Source: a bacterium (GTDB taxonomy: Bacteria > Patescibacteriota > Doudnabacteria > UBA920). Taken from it: a stretch of 64,000 bases of DNA. How positions within the stretch are numbered: position 1 is the first letter of the stretch; each line of letters begins with the position of its first letter. Made by a program: the position numbers and the translations under genes. Location: the NCBI GenBank assembly GCA_016699995.1, contig CP064996.1:412330-476329 (forward strand), written 5' to 3'. Of this stretch, positions 14,576 through 57,394 are shown in pieces. The notes below the pieces were generated by a model. It did not search any database. It was given only the letters and a program-made list of their open reading frames with translations, and had not been told where the DNA came from.

Positions 14576-14578
14576 ACT

Positions 14579-14929: not shown

Positions 14930-15177
14930 ATTCCCCTCCTTAAGGTGCGCTTGGTTGCTTTTTTAAGATTTATTTTTATTGCTCAAGTAGTCAACGAATC
15001 AGCTTCGTTGTTGACTCTAGAGCCTAGCAGAAAAAAAGGGTTTTGTCAAGGCGGCAACGTCCTCAGATTATAATATTTGGATGCTTTAATCATTAAAATT
15101 AGACATTCTGAAAATAAAAAAGAGATGAATTTTTCATCTCTCGATATTTCTTTACTCGTCTACTGTCGAATAATATC

Positions 15178-15444: not shown

Positions 15445-15542
15445 GAATTATATTGTGCCTCCGTACTAAGATTTTATAAGCCTATTTTACCATATTTGTC
15501 TAATTTTGTCAATATCACTCGATTTACTGATATAATCAATCT

Positions 15543-15962: not shown

Positions 15963-16014
15963 AATCCAAAAAACTGCCTTACCTAATGGGGCAGTTTTTT
16001 GTTATGCTATTTTC

Positions 16015-16557: not shown

Positions 16558-16562
16558 ATTTT

Positions 16563-17153: not shown

Positions 17154-17169
17154 TTGAACAAGCAAACTG

Positions 17170-22424: not shown

Positions 22425-22437
22425 TTTTAATTTTAGA

Positions 22438-24776: not shown

Positions 24777-25821
24777 GCGGAATAAAATTCGAGTCGGATT
24801 TGCTTTTAGCGGCGCTTCTACCCGTTCCATTTTTTATATTGGCTTTTTAGAAGCTCTTAAAGAAAACGGTTATCCAATCGATTACATTGCATCGATGTCT
24901 GGAGCAACTATCGTAGCAGCCAGTTTTGCCTCCGGAACCATGGATAAGCTTAAAGAGATGGCCTTCAGCATTAACAAAGAAGTAGTGCTTGGCTTCCTGG
25001 AACGCAGCCGCAGCAAAGGCGGTTTATATCACCTTAGAAAAGTGGAAGAGCTGCTGCGGACTTTTACCAAAAATTATAATTTTGAAGACGTTTCCCCTCG
25101 ATTGGGTTTTGTAGCGACCGATATCGTGGCAGGCGAGGAGGTCGTGCTTCAGGTTGGAGATTTGGCCAAAGCCATTTGCGCGTCATGCACCTTGCCGGTG
25201 GTATTTGAACCGCAACCATGGGGCAACAAAGTATTAGTAGATGGAGGGATCATTAACATTGTTCCCGGAAATGTGGCGCGTCAAGCCGGCATGGATCTTA
25301 TTATCGGTGTAGATTTGCGCGCCACCAGGCATGTATTTAGCCCGTGGCAGATTTTTTTAAGAAAAGCCATTAACCGTGTTAAAAAAGTTCTATGGCCGCA
25401 GTTTGCTAAAAATTTCAAGGAAAGGATCATGAATCAATTGCGCCTATCCGAATTCTGGGAAGATAATTTTTACCTTGGACAGACTGGGCATAAGCTCACT
25501 GACCCAAATCTTCTAACCGTTATTGGGCGATCTTTGGATATTGCTATAGAAGCTCAACAGCGCGATAAGCATAGCGAAAATTTTGAGTGCGATATGTTAA
25601 TAGTTCCAGAACTAGAATTGCCATTTTGGAAGCGTAATCTATTTTTGCGCTTCACTCACGTGGATAACACCAAAGATTACTATTTGGCTGGGCGCAAAGC
25701 GGCAGAAGAATATCTACCAAAGATGTGGCAGCTGCTGAAGGACAAGGAAGAACAGGAAAAGGCCCGGGCAAAGCAACTGGAAACATTGTTTACTCAAACC
25801 GAAAATAACAAAACTAAGTAA
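24766..25821 (+). CDS. patatin-like phospholipase
   Basis: Oxyanion GFAFSGASTRS, nucleophile elbow SMSGAT (GxSxG) and catalytic VDGGI (DGG). Overlaps the murG stop and abuts the murC start. Confidence 0.75.
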   Translation: MQNKRNKIRVGFAFSGASTRSIFYIGFLEALKENGYPIDYIASMSGATIVAASFASGTMDKLKEMAFSINKEVVLGFLERSRSKGGLYHLRKVEELLRTFTKNYNFEDVSPRLGFVATDIVAGEEVVLQVGDLAKAICASCTLPVVFEPQPWGNKVLVDGGIINIVPGNVARQAGMDLIIGVDLRATRHVFSPWQIFLRKAINRVKKVLWPQFAKNFKERIMNQLRLSEFWEDNFYLGQTGHKLTDPNLLTVIGRSLDIAIEAQQRDKHSENFECDMLIVPELELPFWKRNLFLRFTHVDNTKDYYLAGRKAAEEYLPKMWQLLKDKEEQEKARAKQLETLFTQTENNKTK

Positions 25822-27240
25822 ATGAATTTATTACCTAACTCAAAAATCTATTTTATTGGAATCGGTGGTATTGCGATGTCGGCTGCTGCAGGCATCGCCA
25901 AACAAGCCGGTTTCGAAGTTACGGGCAGCGACAGCAAAGCATTATACGATCCGGCAAAGTCAGTGCTGGACGAATTGGATATCGATTACTTTATCGGATA
26001 CAGCGCCGAGCAGCTTAAGAACGCGCAGGTTGATGTTTATGTTGCTTCTGCGGGCGAGGATTTGTCGAATCCGGAAATTGCATACCTTCGTGATAAAAAC
26101 ATAGAAATTTATTCTCTTAGCGAGCTGCTTCATGCATTGGCCGAAGATCAATTGCGTATTGTTGTTACCGGAACTCATGGCAAGTCCACCACCACCGCGA
26201 TGCTTGGCCAGACTTTGCAGACCATCGACGACAGTTCATTTATGACCGGCGCAGTGTTAGCAGAGGCAAAAAGGAATTTTCATTATGGTACAGGTCATTA
26301 TTTCGTATTCGAAGGCGACGAATACAAGGCTCTGTATGATGATCCGACCCCTAAGTTTCAGCAATATCACCCCGATATTCTGCTTCTCACTAACTTAGAG
26401 TTCGACCATCCGGATGTGTTTAATTCTATAGAGGAGATACAAGATGAATTCCGTGAGCTGATAGATAAGATGCCGGACGATGGCATTGTGGTTTACAATG
26501 CCGACTCCAGCGATTTAGCCAAGGTTGTTCATACTAGCAACTTGGGACAGGTTAGCTTTGCCTTGGATAACAGCGCCGATTTTACCGTTTCTAACATAGA
26601 AACCTTGCCGGATAAGACGATGTTTACAGTCAATCGTAAAGATCCTGCATCCGCTGAATACAGCACAGAGCAGTATGCTATCAACGCCTTTGGACGAATT
26701 AATGTGTATAACGCTTTGGGAGTGATTAGTTTGCTGAGAACTTTAGGTTTTAGCCATGAGCAAGTGCAGGATGGCCTAGATAGATTCCGCGGCATCAAGC
26801 GCCGCTTTGAATATATCGGGCAAACCAACGGCGGTACAGGAGCAAAAGTTTTTGATGATTATGCCCATCATCCCACTGCAGTGAAAGAAACTTTAGCAAC
26901 CGCGCGATTGCGCTTTCCCAATTCAAAAATTTGGGCAGTTTTTGAACCGCATACCTTTAGCCGTACAGAAGCTGTGCTTGCAGATTTATCGAAAGCTTTC
27001 GAATCTGCAGATAAAGTCTTACTTGCCGAGATTTATCCGGCGCGAGAAAAGAAAACCGAAAATTCCATCACTGGTCAGCAGGTAGTTGAAGCAATAGCAA
27101 AGAACCATACAGACGTGCAATTGGTGGCAAATAAAAATGAAGTTATAGAGATTTTACAAAAGGAGCTTAGTCCGACAGATGTAGTAATAGTTATGGCGGT
27201 AGGCAGCTTTAACACGCTAGCTCTCGATTTGGTTAAATAA
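25822..27240 (+). CDS. murC: UDP-N-acetylmuramate--L-alanine ligase
   Basis: IYFIGIGGIAMSAAAGIAKQAGFEVTGSD and GTHGKSTTT. Confidence 0.9.
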   Translation: MNLLPNSKIYFIGIGGIAMSAAAGIAKQAGFEVTGSDSKALYDPAKSVLDELDIDYFIGYSAEQLKNAQVDVYVASAGEDLSNPEIAYLRDKNIEIYSLSELLHALAEDQLRIVVTGTHGKSTTTAMLGQTLQTIDDSSFMTGAVLAEAKRNFHYGTGHYFVFEGDEYKALYDDPTPKFQQYHPDILLLTNLEFDHPDVFNSIEEIQDEFRELIDKMPDDGIVVYNADSSDLAKVVHTSNLGQVSFALDNSADFTVSNIETLPDKTMFTVNRKDPASAEYSTEQYAINAFGRINVYNALGVISLLRTLGFSHEQVQDGLDRFRGIKRRFEYIGQTNGGTGAKVFDDYAHHPTAVKETLATARLRFPNSKIWAVFEPHTFSRTEAVLADLSKAFESADKVLLAEIYPAREKKTENSITGQQVVEAIAKNHTDVQLVANKNEVIEILQKELSPTDVVIVMAVGSFNTLALDLVK

Positions 27241-27264
27241 CTTCAAACTAATTGCTGTAGATTT

Positions 27265-28335
27265 ATGCAGATTACAGAAAACGCACAATTAGCGCCTTAT
27301 ACAACCTTTTACATCGGCGGCCCTGCTAGGTATTTGATCTTTGCCCAGGATGACAGTGAAGTTATTGAAGCTATAAAATTTGTGAAGAGTAAAAATCTAC
27401 CCCATCTCATTTTTGGCGGGGGCAGCAACATGCTGGTAAGCGATAACGGTTTTGATGGCGTGGCAATCCGCATCGAGAGTGTAGGAATGGATATTATCGA
27501 GGACTCGCCAGAATCTGTGACTTTAAAAATTGCCAGCGGCGAAGTATGGGACGATGCTGTTCGGTTAGCGGTGGAAGAGAATTGGTGGGGGATCGAAAAT
27601 TTATCGCACATCCCCGGCTTTGTAGGTGCGTTTTGCGTTCAAAACGTGGGCGCATATGGTCAAGAAGCTAGTGATGTGGTGCAGAGCGCTGAGGTGTATG
27701 ATATTGAACGCGATGAGGTTTTAGTCATGCCCGCAGCAGATCTTAATTTTGGCTACCGATCTAGTATTTTTAATACAACGCAAAAAGGCCGCTATATCAT
27801 TTTAAGCACGACTATAAAATTAATAAAGAACGGAAAGCCTAATTTATCTTATGGTGATTTAGCAAGCTATTTCCAAAATTTCACGCCATCGATAGAACAA
27901 ATCCGCGAAGCAGTAATCGAAATTAGAAATAAAAAATTTCCTTTTCCTTCCGAGCCGACAAAAGGAAATAGCGGTTCATTTTTCCGCGGTCCGCTACTGT
28001 CTAGAAACGAGTTTGTTCAATTAAACGAAAAGATCAAACAGAACTTTCCAGAAGCCGCAGATAAATTCGACAACATGGAAAACAAACTTAAAGTATCTCA
28101 AGGATACAAAACCCCAGCAGCCTTTTTAATAGATCTATGCGGTCTTAAAGGGAAAACAGTAGGTGGCGCAAAAATCAACGAAGACCAGCCGGCAATTATT
28201 TTAAATTTTACTGGTCATGCAACAAGCGATGATGTAATGACGTTATATAAAGAAGTAAGCTCCGTTGTTTATGAAAAAACAGGGGTAAATCTGGGCATGG
28301 AACCAGAATTGGTCGGATTCAAATCTGAGAAGTAA
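27265..28335 (+). CDS. murB: UDP-N-acetylenolpyruvoylglucosamine reductase
   Basis: FAD-binding TTFYIGGPARYL...GGGSNMLVSD and C-terminal MurB domain. Confidence 0.9.
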   Translation: MQITENAQLAPYTTFYIGGPARYLIFAQDDSEVIEAIKFVKSKNLPHLIFGGGSNMLVSDNGFDGVAIRIESVGMDIIEDSPESVTLKIASGEVWDDAVRLAVEENWWGIENLSHIPGFVGAFCVQNVGAYGQEASDVVQSAEVYDIERDEVLVMPAADLNFGYRSSIFNTTQKGRYIILSTTIKLIKNGKPNLSYGDLASYFQNFTPSIEQIREAVIEIRNKKFPFPSEPTKGNSGSFFRGPLLSRNEFVQLNEKIKQNFPEAADKFDNMENKLKVSQGYKTPAAFLIDLCGLKGKTVGGAKINEDQPAIILNFTGHATSDDVMTLYKEVSSVVYEKTGVNLGMEPELVGFKSEK

Positions 28336-28387
28336 CGTTATTTTCTGTCGTTGTTTGATATAATTAATGCAGAAAGGACAAATCAAT

Positions 28388-28720
28388 ATGAACATCAACA
28401 TCAAGGCAACTAATACCACCTTAACACCCGCAATTCGCAGTAATATCGAGAATAAACTAGAGGTTCTAAGCAAGTTTCTCAAGCCTGAAGACGTTATTCA
28501 TGTTGAATTAGCCGAAGACACTCACCACAATAGCGGACAATTCTTTAGAGTAGATATTCAAATCAGTCCTCGGGGTAGCTATGCAGAAGCTCGCGCCAAC
28601 GATTTTTATGAAGGAATGGATCTGGTTATTCCAAAAATTACTCAACAATTACGTAAAGAAAAGGAGAAGGGGATCAGCCTCCGACGAAGATTAGGCAACC
28701 TTTTCAAGCGGGGAGAATAG
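28388..28720 (+). CDS. hpf: ribosome hibernation promoting factor (HPF/RaiA family, short form)
   Basis: MNINIKATNTTLTPAIRSNIENKLEVLSKFL...FRVDIQISPRG...EGMDLVIPKI. Start after an AAAGGA SD. Confidence 0.85.
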   Translation: MNINIKATNTTLTPAIRSNIENKLEVLSKFLKPEDVIHVELAEDTHHNSGQFFRVDIQISPRGSYAEARANDFYEGMDLVIPKITQQLRKEKEKGISLRRRLGNLFKRGE

Positions 28721-28818
28721 CCCGATTTTAGGCCACTGGAAGCAGTGGTTTTTAATTTTCTTGCTAATTGCCTAAGTAGTGTATTTTAGCTATACTAAAC
28801 TGGTATTATTTACCCATT

Positions 28819-31563
28819 ATGTCTATATTTTCTAGAGTTTTCTCGTTTGCTTCATCTGATCCGCTGCAAAAGTACAGCGGGGAACTGGCAAAAATTAACA
28901 GCTACGCAGATGAAATTTCTAAATTATCCGACGAACAAATCCAGCAAGAAATTGCTGGCTTTAAAGCTGTCTTAAAAGAAATTACTGATTCGAAAGAAGC
29001 AGTTAAAAAGCTTGCCGAAATCCGCCCCCGTGTATTCGCATTAACCCGCGAGGCCGCGAAGCGCGCTATCGGCCAGTTCCATTACGATGTGCAAATTGTC
29101 GGTGGCATTACTTTAGCCGAAGGTGCGATTGCCGAAATGAAAACCGGTGAGGGTAAAACTTTAACTGCCACTTTGCCATTGGCTTTATACGCACTGGCCG
29201 GGCGCGGAGCACATATCGTAACTGTTAACGATTACTTGGCGCGTTGGCAGGCCAGTCTAATGGGTAAGGTTTTTGCCCAGCTTGGCTTGTCTACTGCCAG
29301 CATTCAGCATGAAGCTTCCTTTTTATACGATCCAACGTATCAGCCCGAACAGGAAGAAATCGAAGCATTAGAAAGCGGTACCCAAGGACTGGTATTAGAT
29401 GTAAAGCATATGCGCCCGATTACGCGTCGACAAGCTTACGAAGCCGATATTACATACGGTACCAACAATGAATATGGGTTTGATTACTTGCGCGATAACA
29501 TGGTCCAGTCTATCGAACATCTTCGACAGCGCGAATTATTCTTTGCAATTGTGGACGAAGTCGACAGCATTTTGATCGATGAAGCCCGTACGCCGTTAAT
29601 TATTTCTCAACCGGACACAGAACCGACTGATAAGTATTTTCAGTTTGCAAAATTAGTAGACCGTTTGCAGGAAGAAAAAGATTATACCGTAGACGAAAAG
29701 CATAAAGCGGCCAGCTTAACCGATGAAGGTATTTCTGAAATCGAACAGATTCTAAAAATTCCAAACATTTACGATACCAGCCAGGGCGTAACAACTTTGC
29801 ATCATATCGAACAGGCTCTGCGTGCCAAGACGCTGTTTAAGCGCGACCGCGATTACGTGATTCGCGACGGCGAAATTGTGATTGTAGATGAATTTACCGG
29901 ACGCCTGATGTTCGGCCGCCGTTATAGCCAGGGTTTGCACCAAGCTATTGAAGCCAAGGAAAATGTAAAGATTCAGCAGGAAAGCAAAACTTTAGCGACT
30001 ATCACTTTCCAGAACTTGTTCCGTTTGTACGACAAGCTTTCCGGTATGACAGGTACTGCTAAGACTGAGGAAGAAGAATTCTTTAAGATTTATCAGTTAA
30101 CAGTAGTCCAGATTCCGACTAATCGCGATATGGTTCGCATGGATCATTCTGATTTGGTATTTAAGAATGAAAACGGCAAGTTTGCTGCAATTGCCAAGGA
30201 TGTTAAAGAGCGCAACAAGCGCGGGCAGCCGGTATTGATCGGTACTGTAAGTATTGCCAAGAACGAATTGCTTGCAGAACACCTTAAAAAAGAGGGCGTA
30301 AAGTTCGAAGTGTTGAACGCTAAGAACCACGAACGCGAAGCTCAAATTATTGCTCAGGCAGGTAGCTTAGGTGCCGTGACATTGGCTACTAACATTGCCG
30401 GCCGTGGTGTAGACATTCTACTCGGAGGCAATCCGGTTGATAAAGAAGAAGCTGCTAAGGTGCGCGAAGCGGGTGGTTTGGCTGTGATCGGTACAGAACG
30501 GCATGAATCCCGCCGTATCGACAACCAGTTGCGTGGCCGTGCCGGCCGTCAGGGTGATCCTGGTTCGAGCCAGTTCTATGTTTCCATGGAAGACGATCTG
30601 ATGCGTCTGTTTGGAGGCGGCCGTATGCAGAGCCTGATGGACACTCTAAAGATTCCAGAAGACCAGCCAATTGAGGCCAAGCTGGTATCCCGCTCGATTG
30701 AATCGGCACAAAAGAAAATCGAAGGCATCAACTTTGATACCCGTAAGAGCGTGCTAGAATTTGACGATGTACTAAACAATCAGCGCAAGAGCATTTACAA
30801 CCGCCGCCGTCGCTACCTTGGCGGGCTAGAGAAGAGCGGCCAGGAAGACAAGCATATCCGTGAAGAAATTTTGGATATGATCAGAGCTGAAATCGAAAGC
30901 ATCGTTACCTTCAACATGGGCAGTCTTGATTTTGAAGAAGGTCTTAAGCAAGTTTTCCAATATGCCGGCAATATCTTAACCACACTCGATGGCAACAAGC
31001 AGGCAGTAATATCCGAAGCTCTCCAAAATGCTGCAGATCGCGACTTTGTATTAATTGACGAATTGAACAAATTGGCCGAGCAGGAAATTAAAGCTAAAGG
31101 TGAAGAAATCGGCGATGAGCTATACGACAGCGTACTGCGTTCTTTGATGTTGTCTTCCATTGACCGTTTATGGATGGAACATCTGGATACTATGGATCAC
31201 TTGCGCGATTCTGTTCGCTTGCGTGGCTATGGCCAGCGCGACCCATTAGTGGAATATAAAAAAGAGGGCTACACTTTATTCAAAAATTTGCAGGCAGAAA
31301 TCGACAAGAGTGTAATCTACGCTGCGCTGCGCGTAGGAGTTCAGATTCATAATGAAGGCGGCCAAACCCATCAGCATATTACTTTAGGCGGTGGTAGCAA
31401 TGATGTTTCTAATAAGAGCAGCGCAGCTCAGGTAGAGGCAGAACCGCAAGATCCGCGCGCAGCTGGTTTAGGGCGCAATGATCCTTGTTATTGCGGATCA
31501 GGTTTGAAGTATAAAAAGTGCGGTTTGATTAATTCTGTAGAACACCAAAAGAATTTGGCATAA
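28819..31563 (+). CDS. secA: preprotein translocase ATPase SecA
   Basis: 914 aa. DEAD-like motor AEMKTGEGKTLTATL and DEVDSILIDEARTPLIIS. C-terminal zinc finger CYCGSGLKYKKCG. Confidence 0.95.
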   Translation: MSIFSRVFSFASSDPLQKYSGELAKINSYADEISKLSDEQIQQEIAGFKAVLKEITDSKEAVKKLAEIRPRVFALTREAAKRAIGQFHYDVQIVGGITLAEGAIAEMKTGEGKTLTATLPLALYALAGRGAHIVTVNDYLARWQASLMGKVFAQLGLSTASIQHEASFLYDPTYQPEQEEIEALESGTQGLVLDVKHMRPITRRQAYEADITYGTNNEYGFDYLRDNMVQSIEHLRQRELFFAIVDEVDSILIDEARTPLIISQPDTEPTDKYFQFAKLVDRLQEEKDYTVDEKHKAASLTDEGISEIEQILKIPNIYDTSQGVTTLHHIEQALRAKTLFKRDRDYVIRDGEIVIVDEFTGRLMFGRRYSQGLHQAIEAKENVKIQQESKTLATITFQNLFRLYDKLSGMTGTAKTEEEEFFKIYQLTVVQIPTNRDMVRMDHSDLVFKNENGKFAAIAKDVKERNKRGQPVLIGTVSIAKNELLAEHLKKEGVKFEVLNAKNHEREAQIIAQAGSLGAVTLATNIAGRGVDILLGGNPVDKEEAAKVREAGGLAVIGTERHESRRIDNQLRGRAGRQGDPGSSQFYVSMEDDLMRLFGGGRMQSLMDTLKIPEDQPIEAKLVSRSIESAQKKIEGINFDTRKSVLEFDDVLNNQRKSIYNRRRRYLGGLEKSGQEDKHIREEILDMIRAEIESIVTFNMGSLDFEEGLKQVFQYAGNILTTLDGNKQAVISEALQNAADRDFVLIDELNKLAEQEIKAKGEEIGDELYDSVLRSLMLSSIDRLWMEHLDTMDHLRDSVRLRGYGQRDPLVEYKKEGYTLFKNLQAEIDKSVIYAALRVGVQIHNEGGQTHQHITLGGGSNDVSNKSSAAQVEAEPQDPRAAGLGRNDPCYCGSGLKYKKCGLINSVEHQKNLA

Positions 31564-37883: not shown

Positions 37884-37912
37884 AAAAACCCCTTATATAA
37901 GGGGTTTTTTAT
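37884..37912 (+). terminator. rho-independent terminator after secF
   Basis: AAAAACCCCTTATATAAGGGGTTTTTTATTT. Confidence 0.85.
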
Positions 37913-37985
37913 TTGAAAAATGGTATAATAATTATTTGACGAACTCATATATATATGTTATAATCTTGAATATTAAGATTTAGTT

Positions 37986-39077
37986 ATGGGCATTTTAGAT
38001 ACTATAATCGATACGCACCAACGAGAATCTTTGCAAGAATTTGAGTTAAACTTGATCATTGCGAAGATCCTTGAACCTTTGAAAGAGCGCGAAAAGCTGA
38101 TTCTTTCCAAGCGTTATGGTTTAAACAGCGAACCTGTTCAGACTTTAAAGGTAGTCGGGGAAGAACAGGGCTTAACTCGCGAGCGCGTTCGACAAATCGA
38201 AAAGGAGTTACTCAAGAACTTAAAACGTGGCGTTAACCAGCTGGAAGAGTTTATCTCTGCCCGTGACCTTTTAGTTACTACTATCGCCGAACACGGCGGT
38301 TTGATGTCGGAAAAGTCTCTGATCCAATTTTTAGGCTACTCGGAAGAAAGCGATGTCCAGGCATTAAAATTCTTATTGCGTTTAATTACAGAAATTGAAG
38401 AGCACAGCGAAGATGAGCATATCCGACAGTCCTGGTCTAAGATTGGTTTCGATAAAGATTTTTTGCGAGACTTTGTAAAAACCACAAAAGAATTGCTAGA
38501 TAACCATGGTCAGCCTTTGGAACCCGAAAAGTTTATCGAAAAATTTGAACAATCGGAATTCTTTAAGCAGAATCAGGACAAGCTTACTCCGAAAGTAGTA
38601 TTGAACTACCTGCACGCTGCAAGCGGCGTTAAGAAGAACCCTTTCGGAGAATTTGGATTGCATCACTGGAACGAAATTAAGCCAAAAGACGTTGGCGATA
38701 AAGCTTATTTAGTAATGAAGCACCACAAGAAGCCGGAGCATTATTCTGCAATTACCGATCTGATCAACGAGCACAACATTGACGGCCGCAAGGCTTACAA
38801 AGAAACAGTTCACAATAAGCTCATTAAAGACAAGCGCTTTGTACTAGTCGGCCGCGGCATTTATGCCTTAACCGAATGGGGCTATAAGCCAGGGGTTGTG
38901 TCCGACATCATTGTAGAAATACTTAAGGAATCTGGCGAACCTCTTACTCGCGACGCGATCGTAGAAAAAGTTTTGGATCGCCGCCTTGTCAAAAAAAATA
39001 CTGTATTGGTTGGCTTGTCTAACAAGAAATTATTCAAAAAAGTGGGTAAAAACCTTTACTCTTTAGCTAACAGTTAA
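37986..39077 (+). CDS. sigma-70 region-4-like HTH protein fused to tandem HARE-HTH-like winged-helix modules
   Basis: N-terminal LSKRYGL...TLKVVGEEQGLTRERVRQIEKELLKNLKR is a sigma r4 / LuxR-type HTH. C-terminal KAYLVMKHHKKPEHYSAITDLINE...KRFVLVGRGIYALTEW and IIVEILKESGEPLTRDAIVEKV...VGKNLYSL follow the HARE-HTH pattern. Confidence 0.55.
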   Translation: MGILDTIIDTHQRESLQEFELNLIIAKILEPLKEREKLILSKRYGLNSEPVQTLKVVGEEQGLTRERVRQIEKELLKNLKRGVNQLEEFISARDLLVTTIAEHGGLMSEKSLIQFLGYSEESDVQALKFLLRLITEIEEHSEDEHIRQSWSKIGFDKDFLRDFVKTTKELLDNHGQPLEPEKFIEKFEQSEFFKQNQDKLTPKVVLNYLHAASGVKKNPFGEFGLHHWNEIKPKDVGDKAYLVMKHHKKPEHYSAITDLINEHNIDGRKAYKETVHNKLIKDKRFVLVGRGIYALTEWGYKPGVVSDIIVEILKESGEPLTRDAIVEKVLDRRLVKKNTVLVGLSNKKLFKKVGKNLYSLANS

Positions 39078-39113: not shown

Positions 39114-40337
39114 ATGGAAAACGGTCTATTCCCAGACGTAATCAATTTGTTAAGCACTATTTGGTTCCTATTCAGTCATGGGGGATGGGTCGTTTTTGTT
39201 ATTATCACAATTTATATTCTGTATCAGTTGTATATTAACGAAATACAGGGGCAGTATGTAAACAGTATTGAGTGGACCCTATTAGAAATTAAGCCTCCCA
39301 AAGAGAATCCGACCAGCTTCTATAACGCGGAACAAGTATTTATTCAGCTGCACCAGCTGTTTGATAATTTTACATTCCAAGAAAAATACCTCGAAGGCAA
39401 GGTGGTGTTTACCATTGCTTTCGAAATTGTCAGTTTGGGTGGCCGCATCTCTTACTTAGTGCGAGTGCCGACCAAGCAGCGCGATCTATTAGAGGCCGCC
39501 TTATATGCCAATTATCCAAGCATAGAATTGACAGAAGTAAAGGATTACTTGGACAATTTTCACTATGATCCAGAAGACAAGCGCTACGATTTATTTGGTG
39601 CGGAATTTGTACCTGTTAAAAATCAGGCATATCCGATCCGTACTTACCGCGAGTTTGAAAGTTTGCACGGTCCAGAACTGAGCGAAATAGTAGTGGATCC
39701 ACTATCGCCGTTACTAGAAACTTTTACTAAGATTAGCGACCAGGAATTTTATGGTGTGCAATTCATCCTGCAGCCGGTAATGGATTCTTCTTGGGAACCG
39801 GATGCCTTGGAGCAAATTGATAAGCTGCTAGGCGAAAAGACTATCGTCACTGCTGACGGTAAAAAGGCTAAAGTCAAGAACGACATGATGGGCGTAGACG
39901 AAATTGTAAAGCAACAGATCGTCTCGATTAAAAGCAAGCTTAACCGTCCCGGTTTTAGAACCAAGATCCGAATGCTGCACTTAGGAACTAAAGAGCAATT
40001 TAATAAGAATGCAAAAAAACTAATCTTAAGTCCATTTCGAGTTTTTGCCGCACCAAACTTCAACAGCCTAAAGCCGACCTACGGTCCTAAAAAAGATTAT
40101 CGCATCTCCCCGAGCTTAGAAGGTGCGTATATCGACTGGTGGGTTAAACGCCGCAAAAAGGAACTATTTGAGGCTTACAAAGGGCGCAGTAGTTATATGG
40201 GCGATAAAACTGCTATTCTTAATACAGAAGAGCTGGCCACTCTATATCATTTCCCGATTACTACGACTTCTGTCACTCAGCCGGTAGAATCGCTCGAAGT
40301 GAAGAAGATTCAGCCACCAGCCAACCTACCTATTTAA
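39114..40337 (+). CDS. hypothetical membrane-anchored protein (N-terminal TM)
   Basis: 407 aa with one hydrophobic helix FLFSHGGWVVFVIITIYILYQLY. 21 nt upstream of the ATPase gene. Confidence 0.45.
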   Translation: MENGLFPDVINLLSTIWFLFSHGGWVVFVIITIYILYQLYINEIQGQYVNSIEWTLLEIKPPKENPTSFYNAEQVFIQLHQLFDNFTFQEKYLEGKVVFTIAFEIVSLGGRISYLVRVPTKQRDLLEAALYANYPSIELTEVKDYLDNFHYDPEDKRYDLFGAEFVPVKNQAYPIRTYREFESLHGPELSEIVVDPLSPLLETFTKISDQEFYGVQFILQPVMDSSWEPDALEQIDKLLGEKTIVTADGKKAKVKNDMMGVDEIVKQQIVSIKSKLNRPGFRTKIRMLHLGTKEQFNKNAKKLILSPFRVFAAPNFNSLKPTYGPKKDYRISPSLEGAYIDWWVKRRKKELFEAYKGRSSYMGDKTAILNTEELATLYHFPITTTSVTQPVESLEVKKIQPPANLPI

Positions 40338-40358
40338 AGCAAGAACATTTATACCTTT

Positions 40359-42302
40359 ATGGAACAAAAAGAACAAATCAATTTTTTTGGCAAAACGAAC
40401 TTCCGCAATCGGCAAGTTCCTTTTGGCATTAAAACCGACGATCGCCGTCGTCACATGTATGTGATCGGTAAAACAGGAATGGGGAAGACCACGTTGATGG
40501 AAAACATGGTTATTCAGGATATCCGCAACGGCAACGGCGTCTGCTTCATCGACCCCCATGGCGATCCGATAATGAAAATTTTGGATTTTGTTCCGCCTCA
40601 TCGGATTAACGACGTGGTGTACTTTAATCCGGCCGATTTAGACTACCCGATCGCGTTCAATATATTAGAATCTGTGGAAAGCCGGTATAAACATTTAGTC
40701 GCTTCCGGCTTGATGGGTGTGTTCACCAAAATTTGGGCCAGCATGTGGTCTAGCCGTATGGAATACATTCTAAACAACACCATTTTGGCTTTGCTCGACA
40801 GTCCTGGCAACACTATGCTTGGTATTGTGCGAATGTATGTAGATAAAAAGTACCGTAAAAAAATTGTCGATAATATCAAGGATCCAATGGTTAAGGCTTT
40901 TTGGATTGAAGAGTTCGCCAATTATGCAGAAAAGTACCGAACAGAAGCCGTGGCTCCGATCCAGAACAAAGTCGGACAGTTTTTATCCTCGGCCGTCATT
41001 CGCAACATCGTGGGGCAGCCAAAATCTACAATAGATTTGCGCGATATAATGGATAACCAAAAAATTCTATTGCTGGACCTTTCTAAAGGTAAAGTGGGTG
41101 AAGATAACTCCGCGTTACTCGGAGCCATGATTATTACTAAACTCCAGTTGGCAGCTTTATCTCGCGTGGACATACCGGAAAGCGAACGTAAGGATTTTTA
41201 TTTATACGTGGACGAATTTCAAAACTTCGTCACGGACAGTTTTGCGACTATTCTAAGCGAAGCGCGTAAATATCGTTTAAACCTTACCATGGGCCACCAG
41301 TATATCGGCCAGCTGACTCCGGAAAACAATACCAAAGTTCGCGATGCCGTATTCGGTAACGTTGGCTCTATGATTGTATTCCGAGTAGGAGCGGCGGATG
41401 CCGAGTATTTAGAAACGGAGTTCGAACCGGCATTTACCCCTACAGACATCGTCAATTTGCCTAAATTCCATATCGTCTTAAAACTAATGATCAACGGCGT
41501 GGCCAGCGATCCTTTCACGGCTACAACCATTCCTGTCGATGAGAACTGGAGAATAGGGGACGGTGAAAAAGTAATTAAAGTTTCTCGAGAACGCTATGCT
41601 AATCCGCGTGAAGAAGTAGAAGAAAAGATTCAGCGCTGGATGGGCACAGAATTTCATGAGGCTTCTGCCGATTCGCACAGTGCTGAAAATGGCGAACAGT
41701 CTATCCGCAGACAGCGAGATCTTCCCGCACAAAAAGCTGGGACGGGCGGTTATGCTGCGTCCAGAGAACGCACCCCAGTGACTCGTCCGGAGAGCAATGA
41801 GAATATGCGCCAAACTGATCAAAATGATCAGCCTGGGGTAGTCGCGGAAGTAAGTGAAGTGGCTGTGCGTAAAGCCAGCATCCAAATCGCCGATGATTTC
41901 TTAAACCGCGTAAAGACTCCGGCCAAAGCTCCAGCCTTTGGTCCATCCGCCGCTGCGCCGGGAAAGCTGGGTCCAAATAGTAATTCAAATAGAACTGGAG
42001 GCCGTTCCTTTAGCAAGCCTAACAGTAGAACAGCTGCGGCACAGCCTGGCAACGCGTATTCGCGCCCAAAACCGGCTCCAAAAGGCCCAAAGAAGCCCGA
42101 CTTTTGGAAAACTGCCCAAACTCTAAATCAACAAAACCAGGAAGGATTGGCTAATAACATCGCTGATGCTTTAGAAGGCGCGTTTACAACAGCACCACCA
42201 AAACCTCAGCCAGCTGCACAACAAGCTCCAAAACCTCCAGTAGACGGTCAAAGTGCAAATCAGACCGGCATAGCAGAGGAAGGACAGACTTACAATTTAT
42301 AA
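40359..42302 (+). CDS. TraD/TraG/VirD4-like (AAA_10-type) P-loop ATPase with long low-complexity C-terminal tail
   Basis: Walker A YVIGKTGMGKTTLMENM and Walker B LYVDEFQNF. The last roughly 200 aa are rich in P/A/Q/G/N. Confidence 0.6.
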   Translation: MEQKEQINFFGKTNFRNRQVPFGIKTDDRRRHMYVIGKTGMGKTTLMENMVIQDIRNGNGVCFIDPHGDPIMKILDFVPPHRINDVVYFNPADLDYPIAFNILESVESRYKHLVASGLMGVFTKIWASMWSSRMEYILNNTILALLDSPGNTMLGIVRMYVDKKYRKKIVDNIKDPMVKAFWIEEFANYAEKYRTEAVAPIQNKVGQFLSSAVIRNIVGQPKSTIDLRDIMDNQKILLLDLSKGKVGEDNSALLGAMIITKLQLAALSRVDIPESERKDFYLYVDEFQNFVTDSFATILSEARKYRLNLTMGHQYIGQLTPENNTKVRDAVFGNVGSMIVFRVGAADAEYLETEFEPAFTPTDIVNLPKFHIVLKLMINGVASDPFTATTIPVDENWRIGDGEKVIKVSRERYANPREEVEEKIQRWMGTEFHEASADSHSAENGEQSIRRQRDLPAQKAGTGGYAASRERTPVTRPESNENMRQTDQNDQPGVVAEVSEVAVRKASIQIADDFLNRVKTPAKAPAFGPSAAAPGKLGPNSNSNRTGGRSFSKPNSRTAAAQPGNAYSRPKPAPKGPKKPDFWKTAQTLNQQNQEGLANNIADALEGAFTTAPPKPQPAAQQAPKPPVDGQSANQTGIAEEGQTYNL

Positions 42303-42304
42303 AT

Positions 42305-42338
42305 CAAAAAACCGTTGAAAGTTTCAACGGTTTTTTTG
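42305..42338. terminator. bidirectional terminator
   Basis: AAAAAACCGTTGAAAG-TTTCAACGGTTTTTTTG. Confidence 0.85.
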
Positions 42339-47717: not shown

Positions 47718-48824
47718 ATGCCTAAGACAAAGTCAAAATTGAATCTGCCGGTCTTACTGCTCACGGCTGCGCTGGTTGTGATCGGGTTAAGCATGCTTTG
47801 GTCTGCGTCTACTGCGGAATCCACTCAAAATTTTGGGAATACTACCTATTATTTAGTCCATCAATTAACCCGCGGGGTTTTAATAGGAGCCATCTCTTTA
47901 TATTTCTTTAGCAGATTTGACTACAACAAATTAAAGAAGCCAGCTGGAATATTTTTAGCAGTGGCTTTAGTGCTTTTGGTTTTAGTAAAGATGCCTGGCC
48001 TGGGAGTAACCGCCAATGGTGCAACCCGCTGGATAAGCTTGGGTCCAATTTTCTTCCAGCCAGCGGAATTAGCCAAGCTTGCAGTCATAATTTACCTAGC
48101 TGCGTGGATGTCTAAACCAGACCGCGCGCCCTCTAATAATTTTTGGCATTCGGTTTTTCCTCCTCTGGTCTTGATCGTTGTAATGAGCATGTTAATCATA
48201 TGGCAGCCGGACTTGGGATCCACTCTTTCTTTATTGGCTATTAGCATGACCATGTTTTTTGCCGGCGGTGTCAGGTTAAAATATTTAGCAGGTTTAGCGG
48301 TGAGCGGAGTGGTGGCAGTTTTAGGTATTGCCTGGATAGAACCCTACCGTCTCCAGCGCATCACTGCTTTTCTAAATCCAAGCGGGGATCCGCTCGGCAT
48401 CGGCTATCAGATCAATCAGGCGTTGATTGCCGTCGGAAGTGGCGGCCTGTTTGGCTATGGTTATGGACTTTCCCGGCAAAAGCACTTCTATTTGCCAGAA
48501 ACGATTAACGACTCTATTTTTGCTATAATCGCTGAAGAGCTGGGCTTTATCAGAATTGTGCTGATATTGCTTATATTTGGTGCGTTGCTGTATAAAATGA
48601 TGCAGGTTGCCCTAAAAGCCTCGGATAATTTCGGCCGAATGCTCGCCATTGGCATTACCTCGCTTATAGCGATAAATGTTACTATAAACATAGCCGCCAT
48701 TATCGGATTAGTGCCTCTTACCGGCATCCCGCTCCCATTCTTTAGCTACGGAAGCACAGCTATGATAGTCAACCTTACTGCCATCGGCATACTCCTGAAC
48801 ATATCCAAACAAAGTAAAGCATGA
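47718..48824 (+). CDS. ftsW: SEDS-family lipid II polymerase, dcw-cluster copy (FtsW)
   Basis: RWISLGPIFFQPAELAKL and GYQINQALIAVGSGGLFGYGYG motifs. Sits directly after murD. Confidence 0.85.
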   Translation: MPKTKSKLNLPVLLLTAALVVIGLSMLWSASTAESTQNFGNTTYYLVHQLTRGVLIGAISLYFFSRFDYNKLKKPAGIFLAVALVLLVLVKMPGLGVTANGATRWISLGPIFFQPAELAKLAVIIYLAAWMSKPDRAPSNNFWHSVFPPLVLIVVMSMLIIWQPDLGSTLSLLAISMTMFFAGGVRLKYLAGLAVSGVVAVLGIAWIEPYRLQRITAFLNPSGDPLGIGYQINQALIAVGSGGLFGYGYGLSRQKHFYLPETINDSIFAIIAEELGFIRIVLILLIFGALLYKMMQVALKASDNFGRMLAIGITSLIAINVTINIAAIIGLVPLTGIPLPFFSYGSTAMIVNLTAIGILLNISKQSKA

Positions 48825-51010
48825 AACGAAAAGTAAAAATTGTATTGCACCATCATATCGACCAAAATTACGAAACGGGCAACAGAGGTTTTTCTTGGCC
48901 GTCTTTTAAGTCTCTGGGTAAGTCTCTAGGATATGGAGTGCTGAACGGATTAGTAGCATTAAGCTACGCCTTCGGCTGGGTTCTAGTAAACGCCTTTAAG
49001 CTGCCCAAGACCCTAGCGCAGGCAGTTAAAAAGAATAATTTTCAATACAAGAATTTTGATTTCAAAAGGGCAGGCAGCTTCGCCTTGCTTATGATCATTG
49101 CCCTAGTTCCAATCTTTGCATTGCAAGTAGCGTCAGAAGGACAACGCATCAGCGGCCGAATCTTGGGAATCAGCGACAGCTTATTGGGCAACGTAAATTC
49201 CGCCCAGGAAGCAATTAAGCAGCAGGATTACGAACTCGCGCAAAGCAACTTTGCTGGAGCTCTGTCTGACCTAAAAATCGCCCAATCGGAGCTGGATCAA
49301 TCCAGCCTGTTCTTAAGATCCATTATTAACTTTGCACCGGCCGGCTATAACACCGGTAATGTTTTAAAAGCCGCAGAATTACTAACAGAATCCGCGCAAA
49401 TCGGCAGCGGCCTACTGGCCCAAATTGAACAATTCAGATTCTCACCAGAAGGATTGACGGTAGTAAATACCGGCAAAAACACATCAGCGCGAGATGCTCT
49501 GAACCAGGTAAGATCAGATGTCGCAGCCGTGAATCTGAAGCTAAACGAAGCCAATGCATTATTGGCTCCGCTAGATAGCGGGGCTTTGCCAGCAAAATAT
49601 CAAGCACCTTTACGGGATAGCCAGGAGCTAATTGCGGATCTGTCGTCTCAGATGAAATCGTTGAGCGCCGCTACGGATTTATTCACCCAAATCCTTTTGG
49701 GCGAAAAGCGATTTTTAGTTTTTTTGCAAAACAACAATGAACTCCGAGCTACCGGCGGATTTATAGGTACTATTGCCCAAGGGAAATTACAGGATGCCTC
49801 TATTAAGCATTTGGATATCCGCAGCGTTTATGATCTAGACGGTCAGTTGGCAAGCTGGATAGTTCCGCCCAAGCCGATGCGCGCGGTTAACAATAGATGG
49901 TTTATGAGAGACGCTAATTGGCTGGCCAGCTTCGCCGAATCCAGCCAGAGGCTTTCTATTCTTTATGAGAAAGAAGGCGGGGAAACTCCAGATTTAATTT
50001 TGGGCATAACGCCGGACTTATTCATAGATTTATTAAATAAGACCGGCCCGATTACTCTGCCCACATATAAAGTCACAATTTCCAGCAGTAACTTTATCGA
50101 GCAGATTCAGACTACCACTTCTGTGGCATACGACAAGAACCTTAACCAGCCTAAGCAGCTCTTGGCCGATTTATACCCTCTGCTCTTGCAAAAAATCGGC
50201 GCCAGCAATGGTTCTGGCTTAGGAATGTTAAGTCTATTGGAGTTGTTCCAAAAGAATTTAGCGGCAAAGAATATTTTAGCTTATTCTAGAGATCCCAACC
50301 TTCAATCTCAGCTAACTAAATTTCATTGGTCCGGAGAACTGATAGCAACCCACAAAGATTACCTGCACATCAACAGTTCTAACTTAAGCGGCACCAAAAC
50401 TGACAGGTCTTTAAAGCGAAATGCTACTCTAATTACCACTATCCAGCCTGACGGCGCTATTATCAATCAGGTTCGATACACGATTACCAATCCGCTACCT
50501 AACAGTCCTGGGTTAACTAATACCAGCTTTGTAAGATTCTATGTTCCAGATAATTCCAGGATTTTAGCAGCAGATGGCTTTGATAATATCACCATGCCAG
50601 AATTACCAAAGGATAAAGGTTATGTTAACGACTCGGTAATTGAACAGTGGAACCGCGATCTGCAATTCGACGACGCTCATAATGTTTTCTTTGGGAAAGA
50701 GAGCGGAAAAATGTTCATAGCTAACTGGTTTAAGGTGGCAGGGGGAGAGACTAAAACTGTTACCGTAACCTACCAGCTTCCGTTTAAAATAGATAACCCG
50801 GATAACTATAGCTTGTATTGGCAAAAGCAGGCAGGAATGCTCCCGTTCGAGATATCTCAGGAGATCATTTTCCCCGATCGCTCGTTGATTTGGGATAATT
50901 TTGGCAACCAAAACAGGGGAGTCGAAAAGCCCAGTTCAGATAAGTCAATCTGGAGGCAGCAAAGTTTTAATCAAGACCAATTCATCGGCGTAGTGATAAA
51001 GGCAAAATAA
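48821..51010 (+). CDS. large membrane-anchored protein of unknown function in the dcw cluster (possibly DUF4012-like)
   Basis: 729 aa with a TM near residue 85 and no catalytic motifs. Translationally coupled to ftsW and murJ. The DUF4012 assignment is from memory of CPR annotations. Confidence 0.5.
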   Translation: MKRKVKIVLHHHIDQNYETGNRGFSWPSFKSLGKSLGYGVLNGLVALSYAFGWVLVNAFKLPKTLAQAVKKNNFQYKNFDFKRAGSFALLMIIALVPIFALQVASEGQRISGRILGISDSLLGNVNSAQEAIKQQDYELAQSNFAGALSDLKIAQSELDQSSLFLRSIINFAPAGYNTGNVLKAAELLTESAQIGSGLLAQIEQFRFSPEGLTVVNTGKNTSARDALNQVRSDVAAVNLKLNEANALLAPLDSGALPAKYQAPLRDSQELIADLSSQMKSLSAATDLFTQILLGEKRFLVFLQNNNELRATGGFIGTIAQGKLQDASIKHLDIRSVYDLDGQLASWIVPPKPMRAVNNRWFMRDANWLASFAESSQRLSILYEKEGGETPDLILGITPDLFIDLLNKTGPITLPTYKVTISSSNFIEQIQTTTSVAYDKNLNQPKQLLADLYPLLLQKIGASNGSGLGMLSLLELFQKNLAAKNILAYSRDPNLQSQLTKFHWSGELIATHKDYLHINSSNLSGTKTDRSLKRNATLITTIQPDGAIINQVRYTITNPLPNSPGLTNTSFVRFYVPDNSRILAADGFDNITMPELPKDKGYVNDSVIEQWNRDLQFDDAHNVFFGKESGKMFIANWFKVAGGETKTVTVTYQLPFKIDNPDNYSLYWQKQAGMLPFEISQEIIFPDRSLIWDNFGNQNRGVEKPSSDKSIWRQQSFNQDQFIGVVIKAK

Positions 51011-54681: not shown

Positions 54682-55245
54682 ATGGCAAAATTCGCATTAT
54701 TAGAGGGCGAACATGTGAAGAACGTTTACCGTCAAAGCAGTGTGTTTTTAATCGAGGATTCTTTAGTCCCTCTTGCGGCCGCGATTATCCCCACGCTAAT
54801 TTTATGGAGGTACGGGTTGTTAGGGCAATTTCAGGGAGTGGTTTACGCGCTAGTGATCGTTTCAGGAATTTGGTTCATCAAAAAATGCATACTGTGGTAC
54901 TTAACGAGCTATGTACTAACTAACAGGCGCCTCATCCTTTTTTACCGACCAGGAATATTTAATAAGTCGGTCATGGAAACCCCTTTGGAGAGGGTATTAA
55001 ACGTCGGTTACAAGTCCAAAGGATTCATTTCCGCCATCTTCGATTATGGCAACGTAGAAGTACAGGTTGTGGGCCTGGTCGATTCTGTCACTTTAAAGAA
55101 TATCCCTAATCCTGCTGCTATTAAGGATTACTTATGGGAAATGCATAAACGGGTGATTGCTAAGCCGATAGCGTTCGACCAAGATGACATTACCCATTTC
55201 CAGGAAAAAATCGGTTATACTAAAAAGAATAAAAAGTCTCAATGA
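54682..55245 (+). CDS. membrane protein with bacterial PH (YdbS-like) domain
   Basis: Two TMs followed by a roughly 80 aa beta-rich domain. Weak assignment. Confidence 0.45.
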   Translation: MAKFALLEGEHVKNVYRQSSVFLIEDSLVPLAAAIIPTLILWRYGLLGQFQGVVYALVIVSGIWFIKKCILWYLTSYVLTNRRLILFYRPGIFNKSVMETPLERVLNVGYKSKGFISAIFDYGNVEVQVVGLVDSVTLKNIPNPAAIKDYLWEMHKRVIAKPIAFDQDDITHFQEKIGYTKKNKKSQ

Positions 55246-56803: not shown

Positions 56804-57394
56804 ATGTCAAAAATTCCCAAGCATGCGATAAGTTTATATAAAGGTGTAAGTTTTGAGGTTCTGCAATGGTCTCAGGTGATGTTCGATAACTCCGTGCGGA
56901 CTTTTGAGGTCGCAAAAAATTTGGAAACTGTTTCCATAATGGCCACAGTCGGAGATAAAATTGTAGTTCTGTATCAAAAGCAGCCTGGGACAAAATGGTA
57001 CTACACTTTACCAGGCGGGTATATGGACATCCCAGAAGAGTCTCCCCGCAATGCAGCGCTGCGGGAATTAAGAGAGGAAACTGGCTTGAAGCCAAAATTT
57101 TTTAAAAAATTTCAAACCTATCACCGCCTGGGTCGAATCAGATCAACCCTTCACATGTATATTGCCAATGATTGCTATCAGGCAGGTGGCCAAAAACTAG
57201 ATGGCGGGGAGATTATTAAAGTAAAACTTTACTCATACGACGAGTTTCTAAGATTATCCGACAACCCGCATTTCCATAACAGCGACTTAGTTATTCTCAT
57301 GCTTCAGGCGCGCCTCTCTAAATCTAAATACTTGGCCTTTAAAAAAACCATTTTCCAAGGGGCGAAGAAAATTAAGAAAACCTTGCCAAAATAA
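56804..57394 (+). CDS. NUDIX hydrolase
   Basis: Nudix box LPGGYMDIPEESPRNAALRELREETGL. Confidence 0.8.
   Translation: MSKIPKHAISLYKGVSFEVLQWSQVMFDNSVRTFEVAKNLETVSIMATVGDKIVVLYQKQPGTKWYYTLPGGYMDIPEESPRNAALRELREETGLKPKFFKKFQTYHRLGRIRSTLHMYIANDCYQAGGQKLDGGEIIKVKLYSYDEFLRLSDNPHFHNSDLVILMLQARLSKSKYLAFKKTIFQGAKKIKKTLPK

Follow-up and report, generated by a model that had tools for sequence, protein, structure and literature searches.

A DUF8128 protein and a coupling-protein-type ATPase form a conserved two-gene module in Patescibacteria

Results

Genes A and B

The 64-kb window analyzed here (positions 412,330 to 476,329 of the 943-kb contig CP064996.1, from a member of the Doudnabacteria within the Patescibacteria) contains two adjacent genes, A and B, which encode a membrane-anchored protein with the domain of unknown function DUF8128 and a soluble ATPase resembling the coupling proteins (T4CPs) of type IV secretion systems (T4SSs). 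The genes lie 21 nt apart on the same strand. Their positions and lengths, as well as the presence of one transmembrane (TM) helix in A and none in B, agree with an initial annotation of this DNA, which had taken the pair for orphan coupling-protein-like machinery with a split-off membrane domain. The features of the two genes are as follows.

39114..40337, + strand: gene A, 407 aa, DUF8128 (PF26449); membrane-anchored, putative VirB4-N-terminal-domain-like partner of the ATPase
39144..39245, + strand: N-terminal TM helix of A, residues about 11–44, with a conserved HGGW; the sole hydrophobic stretch in A
39273..40268, + strand: predicted cytoplasmic α/β domain of A, residues ~54–385, modeled with the VirB4/TrwK N-terminal-domain fold
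40221..40256, + strand: conserved motif NTEELATLYHFP near the A C terminus; E372, E373, T376, H379 and P381 invariant
40314..40334, + strand: C-terminal PPANLPI peptide of A; P402, L405 and P406 invariant; junction point of natural A–B fusions
40359..42302, + strand: gene B, 647 aa, soluble T4CP-type (TrwB/VirD4-like) ATPase with a probably disordered tail
40467..40493, + strand: Walker A motif (P-loop) GKTGMGKTT, B residues 37–45, read from the sequence
41208..41228, + strand: Walker B region VDEFQNF, B residues 284–290, read from the sequence
41691..42299, + strand: low-complexity C-terminal tail, B residues 445–647, rich in A/P/Q/G/N, net charge +8
42168..42185, + strand: short tail motif ALEGAF, B residues 604–609; orthologue tails carry an ALExAF or LKKALEESL-type amphipathic motif
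42270..42299, + strand: extreme C-terminal peptide IAEEGQTYNL, B residues 638–647; conserved as φ-x-(P/E)-G-x-x-φ-x-(F/L)

Split and fused forms of the pair

Among 80 species-level genomes carrying A, 73 have B directly 3′ of it in the same orientation, separated by gaps of 3–492 nt. Of the remaining loci, two end too early to be judged and five lack an adjacent B, one of which contains Ns. Because the split is kept in 73 genomes with gaps of this range, an assembly or frameshift artefact is ruled out as its origin. The initial annotation had named a lack of co-occurrence as grounds for treating the upstream protein as unrelated; the 73/80 loci instead identify A as a true partner of B, with pairing far beyond chance.

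The same two domains are also found within single chains. An end-to-end fusion is seen in protein P0372 (956 aa), where the sequence '...APTNLPI' runs directly into the N terminus of B, and dozens of Patescibacteria proteins of 725–1,142 aa have the corresponding PF26449 + PF10412 architecture. The profile PHROG 5156 (824 positions) is matched by A over positions 50–261 and by B over positions 396–813. In gp156 of Bacillus phage G (825 aa), the C-terminal half is a B-like motor, and the N-terminal half aligns with the A profile (hhalign 95%, E 2e-8) and is flagged as DUF8128 by Pfam. The N terminus of a Shouchella plasmid protein likewise aligns with the DUF8128/A profile (hhalign 97.9%, E 5e-13). 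Both proteins possess a counterpart of the NTEELATLYHFP motif, namely NVQEMSQFIHLP in phage G gp156 and GTEEMAAIMRLP in the Shouchella protein. In P0482, P0461 and phage G gp156, the globular domain is kept and the N-terminal TM helix is absent.

Protein A

The assignment of PF26449 to A and to nearly all of its homologues comes from precomputed tables; the family is not in the local Pfam copy, and a direct Pfam scan of A was thus blank. No mention of DUF8128 or PF26449 was found in the searchable literature. In terms of membrane topology, the hydrophobic stretch of A (Kyte–Doolittle window starts at residues 12–26, spanning ~12–44) includes G23, G24 and W25, which are invariant or nearly so. 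In fused homologues, clusters of Lys and Arg residues immediately follow the TM helix and the ATPase is reached without another TM segment, which places the globular domain in the cytoplasm (N-out, C-in).

An AlphaFold model of A (28 homologues; pLDDT 80, pTM 0.76) consists of one long N-terminal helix (residues 8–51) followed by the α/β domain. When this model was searched with Foldseek, the top 12 matches were all TrwK chains (E ≤ 2.7e-4, probability ≥ 0.99), rather than the coupling-protein membrane domain that had been anticipated for A. P-loop ATPases and the chain 4ag5, which holds the VirB4 C-terminal domain (CTD) only, were absent from the matches of a separate structural comparison even though they are in the library, which indicates that A matches the N-terminal domain (NTD) specific to VirB4. 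The model thus assigns the VirB4 (TrwK) NTD fold to the cytoplasmic part of A, and A is best described, at the level of this prediction, as a single-pass anchor carrying a VirB4-NTD-like cytoplasmic domain. The earlier view of A as a T4CP membrane domain is not upheld, as ~330 of the 407 residues are predicted to form this domain.

The resemblance is confined to fold. Searches of PDB sequences with A, as a single sequence or as a profile, gave zero matches, and no sequence-level link was detected between A and either the N terminus of Patescibacteria VirB4 or the 221-aa protein encoded next to VirB4 at one of the T4SS loci described below (L095).

Protein B

The two Walker motifs recognized in the initial annotation are both present, and G37, G40, G42 and K43 of the P-loop as well as D285, E286, F287, Q288, N289 and F290 of the Walker B region are invariant across 29 orthologues. 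A Kyte–Doolittle scan of B found no hydrophobic 19-mer, and hence no T4CP N-terminal TM domain in the same chain. The T4CP type proposed for B from its motifs was borne out by Pfam, in which B exceeds the cutoffs for TrwB_AAD_bind (45.2 bits, cutoff 20.5), TraG-D_C (24.7, cutoff 22), T4SS-DNA_transf (21.1, cutoff 20.1) and DUF87, and by its database annotation as a 'type IV secretion system DNA-binding domain-containing protein'. Among PDB sequences, TrwB and DotL were the only significant matches, both for B alone and for a profile of the 29 orthologues (TrwB 1e-7 and DotL 9e-6 with the profile); VirB4, FtsK and HerA gave no PDB sequence match even at E ≤ 1.

With respect to narrower families, B is far under all NCBIfam equivalog cutoffs, the best being SXT_TraD (60.9 bits vs 366) and the CD1115-type VirD4 (38.9 vs 250). 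The VirB4 models CagE_TrbE_VirB and AAA_10/P-loop_TraG have no Pfam match in A or B, and the VirB4 model TIGR00929 scores 14.4 bits against a cutoff of 643; P-loop_TraG and AAA_10 do match genuine VirB4s of Patescibacteria and phages. Consistent with this distinction, B aligned with the VirD4-like TrsK of pSK41 across 308 columns and with the VirB4-type TrsE of the same plasmid around Walker A only.

Structural comparison of the motor was made with a model of the fused protein P0482, which is 51% identical to the B core, and not with a model of B. The best scores were obtained for the VirB4 CTD (4ag5, 29.3), the DndH C-domain (29.0) and TrwB (28.2, aligned over 364 of 420 residues), followed by HerA (24.6), DotL (23.5), Cag-beta (22.5), FtsK (16.2) and TcpA (15.9). 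Residues 420–530 of this model, between Walker A and Walker B, are all-helical, and the VirB4 CTD has a comparable insert. Taken together, these results identify B as a motor of the VirB4/T4CP clade that is T4CP-like by sequence, is not FtsK-like and is not firmly HerA. The pair does not combine an FtsK-type motor with a multi-TM N terminus and a gamma (KOPS-binding) domain, nor does it join a HerA-type motor to an adjoining NurA nuclease or defense effector. The alternative of a HerA or FtsK enzyme with NurA, which the initial annotation had allowed for, accordingly finds no match in the PDB results or in the genes next to the pair.

The C-terminal tail of B

The last 203 residues of B are, judging from their composition, probably disordered. 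Relative to the orthologue at locus L001, the tail is ~27% identical and the core 81%, and the sequence following the core ranges from 13 to 234 residues among 117 close orthologues. At least one of the two tail motifs (the terminal peptide and the amphipathic motif) was found in 51 of 66 complete tails, compared with 0.74 expected from composition-preserving shuffles. The patterns were derived post hoc from the same data on which they were tested, and the shuffle control thus rules out an effect of composition only. The arrangement suggests a tethered docking peptide. In the TraD protein of F, a tethered terminal peptide of the tail recruits TraM, and by analogy the tail of B may act as that of TraD does with TraM.

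Genomic contexts of related proteins

The fused protein P0482 is encoded next to a PrgI-like gene, a VirB4 gene (P-loop_TraG/AAA_10) and an M23 hydrolase gene, beside dnaA/dnaN. On a plasmid of Shouchella clausii (NZ_CP012476), an 883-aa fused protein is followed by Replic_Relax, TcpC and TcpE, which places it in the coupling-protein slot of a Gram-positive conjugation module. The fused gp27.4 of phage SPO1 is followed by the Replic_Relax relaxase-type protein gp27.3 (locus L005), and in phage G (L004) the VirB4-type ATPase gp155 precedes gp156. Other Patescibacteria copies adjoin dnaX or gyrBA. All functionally interpretable contexts of relatives are T4SS or conjugation contexts. The description of the pair as an orphan in the initial annotation is thus valid for this window and fails for the fused relatives beside the T4SS cluster and in the plasmid conjugation module.

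Several further observations were made at these loci. At L094 and L095, a Patescibacteria T4SS cluster (a PrgI-like gene, the 221-aa protein, VirB4 and an M23 peptidase) abuts dnaA/dnaN at ~4–10 kb; a cluster of this kind beside dnaA/dnaN has been described in Patescibacteria (PMC12102498). The dnaA, dnaN, VirB4 and M23 genes are each fragmented in L094 when compared with L095, probably owing to long-read frameshift errors in the assembly. The Shouchella locus (L098, positions 21837–31035 of the 31-kb plasmid) carries the DUF8128–T4CP fusion, Replic_Relax, TcpC, TcpE and a large ATP-binding protein; from this gene content it looks like a compact Tcp-type conjugation module, and the plasmid is typed 'non-mobilizable' by MOB-suite. 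Typing tools may miss coupling proteins of the DUF8128 type. Large Bacillus phages, namely phage G and SPO1, carry conjugation-like gene pairs. Motors of the B type also occur on plasmids, at 26–39% identity, in Sulfitobacter, Priestia, Streptomyces (111 records), haloarchaea (Natrinema, Haladaptatus) and Sulfolobus; 291 of 340 plasmids with such motors are typed non-mobilizable, and the Sulfitobacter copy (39% identity, 395 aa) lies alone between a DUF3768 gene and transposases.

Distribution and conservation

The A family comprises 2,798 clusters at 50% identity and is present in at least 583 species genomes. Records labeled by organism include Doudna-, Uhr-, Magasanik-, Komeili-, Azam-, Wildermuth-, Colwell-, Yanofsky- and Buchananbacteria as well as Paceibacterota. 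Median identity to the proteins of the window is 63% for the B core (58–93) and 31% for A (27–80). The B core is better conserved than A at 73/73 loci, than secF at 49/50, than the gene upstream of A (see below) at 57/59 and than mraY at 7/8. The position of the pair between secDF and the dcw cluster is also conserved, and split-type A was found neither in phage records nor among 2.9 million IMG/VR viral contigs. A–B is a core, vertically inherited chromosomal pair across Patescibacteria and not a remnant of a mobile element, and the arrangement is a phylum-wide feature rather than a peculiarity of this locus.

One metagenome-assembled genome (MAG), CAYVOF01, carries two split A–B pairs (L009 and L012) with the same downstream synteny, which are 76% (A) and 88% (B), and 55% (A) and 86% (B), identical to those of the window; either the bin is mixed or the duplication is real. 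Among TPA_asm MAGs with the pair, many bear the label 'uncultured Gammaproteobacteria' or 'Saccharibacteria', apparently as placeholder taxonomy.

Operon structure and neighboring genes

The features flanking the pair are listed below.

37884..37909, both strands: bidirectional hairpin terminator 3′ of secF; 11-bp stem AAAAACCCCTT/AAGGGGTTTTT, with T-runs on both strands
37936..37964, + strand: sigma-70-like promoter candidate, TTGACG-17-TATAAT with extended TG; 11/12 matches, by consensus match only
37986..39077, + strand: gene for a 363-aa protein with sigma-70 region 4 and HARE-HTH (Pfam Sigma70_r4 1e-9, HARE-HTH 7e-12)
42306..42337, both strands: bidirectional intrinsic terminator hairpin, A6-CCGTTGAAAGTTTCAACGG-T7; read directly, missed by the consensus scan

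The 363-aa protein has sigma-70 region 4 at residues 29–80 and a C-terminal HARE-HTH domain at residues 239–298, and it lacks sigma regions 2 and 3. Its gene ends 36 nt before A and lies immediately 5′ of A at 62 of the 74 loci with sufficient upstream sequence. The promoter candidate, the best of the region, lies 22 nt before its start codon. The hairpin 3′ of secF appears to be the upstream limit of the transcription unit, and the terminator following B is common to B and a convergent thioredoxin gene. Judged from this layout, the sigma-r4/HARE-HTH gene, A and B appear to form a three-gene operon. The first product could resemble the delta subunit of RNA polymerase, act as a regulator or link the motor to DNA as an adaptor.

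The window otherwise contains housekeeping genes: ftsW, prfA, prmC, rpsB, tsf, uppS, glycosyltransferases, murG/C/B, secA, secDF, a DD-carboxypeptidase, mraY, murD, ftsW, murJ, lepA, divIC, prsA and ATP synthase. In agreement with the initial annotation, which had reported no VirB4, VirB6 or relaxase nearby, no gene for these proteins or for a pilus was found in the window, where some open reading frames (ORFs) without a Pfam match, and three ORFs of at least 150 aa each (54682–55245, 56804–57394 and 58919–59608), were not scanned individually. Genes for VirB3/VirB6/VirB8-type membrane subunits are absent from it as well; the search for T4SS genes covered these 64 kb of the 943-kb contig. Around the pair, GC content is unexceptional for the window and there is no integrase, repeat or compositional anomaly, and no gene for NurA, Sir2, a nuclease, a methyltransferase or another defense function adjoins it.

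Elsewhere in the window, positions 13909–17757 have a GC content of 0.40 (vs ~0.44 elsewhere) and encode DUF2726, a PF06042 nucleotidyltransferase, an unannotated 196-aa ORF and an AAA_33/zeta-toxin-like kinase; this may be a small accessory, toxin–antitoxin or defense islet. The sole Pfam match of a 655-aa protein (10169–12136) is a sub-threshold MutS domain V (29.6 vs 30.2 bits, residues 479–603), and the product may be a divergent MutS2-like ATPase; the contig index had no record of an identical product. There are two FtsW/RodA paralogues (2304–3404 and 47718–48824), a 729-aa DUF4012 protein is encoded between ftsW and murJ within the division/cell-wall cluster (48821–51010), and a gene for a patatin-like phospholipase (24766–25821) sits between murG and murC.

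Discussion

Comparison with known systems

By sequence, B belongs to the T4CP family (VirD4, TrwB, TraD and DotL). The helical insert of the P0482 model between Walker A and Walker B may be a further likeness to this family, one that the VirB4 CTD would share, the long tail with its terminal motifs recalls the TraM-binding tail of TraD, and relatives of the pair adjoin relaxase-type genes. The N termini of canonical T4CPs are short two-helix membrane domains. Unlike these proteins, B has no such domain in its own chain, and the separate protein A provides one TM helix together with the putative VirB4-NTD-like domain. The pair also differs in having no relaxase or T4SS gene near it in the window, and, in contrast to the T4CPs of mobile elements, B is far more conserved, chromosomal and core. 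With respect to VirB4/TrwK, B is nearer to T4CPs in sequence and has no sequence-level membership in VirB4, the pair is split into two genes, A has a TM helix of its own and genuine VirB4 is encoded separately in Patescibacteria, as it is beside the fused P0482 in L095.

The closest parallels are the fused DUF8128–T4CP proteins (the 883-aa Shouchella protein, gp156, gp27.4 and PHROG 5156), which have the same two domains in the same order and a NTEELATLYHFP-type junction motif. They differ from A–B in being single chains that are 24–28% identical to A or B, in residing on mobile elements and, for some, in lacking a TM helix. We found no experimental study of the Firmicutes plasmid and phage fusions in the searchable literature; on the evidence of their sequences and gene neighborhoods, they seem to show the ancestral single-chain form and its working context. 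A monoderm precedent for the split arrangement is provided by TrsD and TrsE of pSK41/pGO1, where a small VirB4-NTD-like protein is encoded directly upstream of a T4SS ATPase. A is nearly twice as long as TrsD and has a TM helix, and its ATPase partner is T4CP-like rather than VirB4-like. An identity of A with TrsD was rejected, as no similarity was detectable (hhalign 0.2%) in a comparison of the A profile with the single pSK41 TrsD sequence, which is a weak test.

In a survey of 3,035 Patescibacteria genomes, Quinonero-Coronel et al. (2025, PMC12102498) found 5,713 VirD4-type T4CP homologues distributed over 2,918 genomes, with only 148 encoded near virB4; VirB4 itself was present in 2,417 of the 3,035 genomes, and exaptation of the T4CP homologues was raised as possible. 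These proteins are almost certainly of the same gene family as B, and the existence of orphan T4CP homologues in Patescibacteria, mostly far from virB4, is therefore already known. The partner or N-terminal domain, the split and fused forms, the operon, the exceptional conservation and the tail motifs are not described there, and, together with the fold assignment for DUF8128, look unreported in the searchable literature. In Southlakia epibionticum, the T4SS was found to be essential while 'lacking recognizable coupling and relaxase proteins' (Wang et al. 2023, PMC10633639).

A proposed coupling ATPase

In terms of architecture, A and B would together make up a single translocation ATPase of the VirB4/T4CP clade, anchored in the membrane and built from two polypeptides, and with ~330 of the 407 A residues in the VirB4-NTD fold of the model, the pair would copy the architecture of VirB4. 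A would supply one N-out/C-in TM helix and the cytoplasmic domain with the VirB4 (TrwK) NTD fold, and B a TrwB/VirD4-type RecA-like motor with a helical insert and a flexible tail of ~200 residues ending in motifs. The C-terminal region of A may dock on the N terminus of B and tether it at the membrane, since natural fusions join exactly there. By analogy with other motors of its clade, B is taken to assemble into a ring, probably a hexamer, and A, through its VirB4-NTD-like domain, may contact VirB3/VirB8-type membrane subunits in the way that the NTD of VirB4 does. B would then hydrolyze ATP and hand over or push a polymeric substrate, with its tail motifs recruiting a partner or substrate as the TraD tail does TraM. 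With respect to origin, the module may descend from a DUF8128-type coupling protein of Gram-positive (monoderm) conjugation systems, and would have become core and highly constrained and been split into two genes in many lineages.

As to function, we lean toward A–B being the coupling ATPase of a chromosomal, relaxase-less Patescibacteria T4SS encoded elsewhere in the genome, a role that we consider somewhat probable. Our confidence in the anatomy of the pair, meaning its domains, folds and split and fused forms, is much higher than in this functional part. Co-occurrence, conservation and genomic contexts are likewise documented above, and the complex between A and B, its oligomerization, the partnership with a T4SS, the substrate and the role of the tail are what we infer.

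Several points weigh against this assignment. The window is without any T4SS gene. The neighbors of the pair are secDF, the sigma-r4/HARE-HTH gene and cell-wall and division genes, and elsewhere dnaX and gyrBA, with which a housekeeping role fits equally well. The fold comparison cannot separate a T4CP from the VirB4 CTD (28.2 vs 29.3), with HerA close behind (24.6), and on the B side it was made with a fused homologue 51% identical to B rather than with B; the A–B complex and its oligomeric state enter the argument as predictions. In the published survey, 148 of 5,713 T4CP homologues were near virB4, and the homologues were present in more genomes than VirB4 (2,918 vs 2,417), so some of them may act without a T4SS (PMC12102498). 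The same study reports a T4CP homologue of S. epibionticum, which may be any member of the family, to be nonessential and the T4SS essential.

Alternative explanations

The main rival is an autonomous housekeeping translocase, in which the pair, anchored in the membrane, pumps nucleic acid without the involvement of a T4SS. Such a pump could act in the segregation or resolution of chromosomes during division, or take up DNA or RNA, and the co-operonic sigma-r4/HARE-HTH protein would be its DNA-binding adaptor or regulator. We hold this to be unlikely, yet a contender to be taken seriously. It would account for the conserved operon with a DNA-binding protein (62/74 loci), the fixed position between secDF and the dcw cluster, the proximity of other family members to dnaX, gyrBA and dnaA, the extreme conservation of the motor, above that of MraY, and the absence of split-type A from 2.9 million viral contigs. 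It is also in line with the occurrence of T4CP homologues in 96% of genomes versus 80% for VirB4, with 148 of 5,713 near virB4, and with the reported nonessentiality of the Southlakia homologue. However, small, streamlined genomes often keep gene order without functional coupling, and the difference between 96% and 80% could stem from about two T4CP copies per genome and from the sensitivity of hidden Markov models. All interpretable contexts of relatives are T4SS or conjugation modules, and a VirB4-NTD-like domain is known from T4SS ATPases only. In TM7x, a Saccharibacterium that has been cultivated, ftsK is annotated, which leaves no evident vacancy for the pair to fill; this also weakens replacement of FtsK as a candidate role.

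Much less can be said for a canonical T4CP from which the N-terminal TM domain has split off, with A essentially just a membrane anchor. The single TM helix of A, the lack of one in B and the fusion of the two in some relatives are what such a split would produce. Its weakness lies in the ~330-residue globular domain of A, whose only strong structural match is the VirB4 NTD, and in P0482, P0461 and phage G gp156, which keep this domain without the TM helix; we therefore regard this explanation as very improbable. A similarly slight chance is given to a HerA-type repair helicase or defense ATPase (HerA–NurA, HerA–Sir2/DUF4297, Dnd DptH/DndH or MADS mad8-like) for which A would serve as effector or partner. 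No defense gene (NurA, Sir2, nuclease or methyltransferase) adjoins the pair, the modeled fold of A is not nuclease-like and the B profile matches T4CPs and not HerA in the PDB, with relatives in conjugation modules. Vertical, phylum-wide inheritance in fixed housekeeping synteny is moreover unlike a defense island. A decaying, nonfunctional relic that a mutation has split, left by a prophage or an integrated conjugative element, would fit the fused relatives in phages and plasmids and the lack of local partner T4SS genes, but can be dismissed with near certainty given that 73 genomes keep the split, that the ORFs are intact and the catalytic residues invariant, that B is the most conserved gene of its neighborhood, and that there is no integrase, repeat or compositional anomaly and no viral contig with split-type A.

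Implications

A bolder reading, which we put forward as a long shot, is that DUF8128 and a T4CP-type motor form the universal cytoplasmic engine of a T4SS-like tube of Patescibacteria that runs in import mode and pulls host nucleic acid (RNA or DNA) or other polymers into the episymbiont. In this scheme, docking of the motor on the channel would fall to the VirB4-NTD-like domain, and the entering polymer would be received by the tail motifs or by the sigma-r4/HARE-HTH protein. If true, this would account for the near-universal, extremely conserved motor and for the absence of relaxases. It would likewise explain how host RNA is taken up, a route left unresolved in a 2026 preprint in which T4SS-like tubes were seen (bioRxiv 10.64898/2026.06.21.733656), and would define a third lineage of T4SS ATPases, with a VirB4 N-terminal domain on a T4CP-like engine.

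Patescibacteria account for a large share of bacterial diversity, and before theirs no T4SS had been shown to be essential for its bearer. Our analysis gives the orphan T4CP homologues of this phylum a defined anatomy, consisting of a DUF8128 subunit or domain, split and fused forms, an operon partner and putative tethered tail motifs, and this anatomy offers concrete handles for experiments. The hybrid of a predicted VirB4-type N-terminal domain and a T4CP-type motor, which large Bacillus phages and plasmids of Gram-positive bacteria also possess, is informative about the divergence of coupling proteins from VirB4. Finally, DUF8128, a Pfam domain of unknown function, gains a predicted fold and a context.

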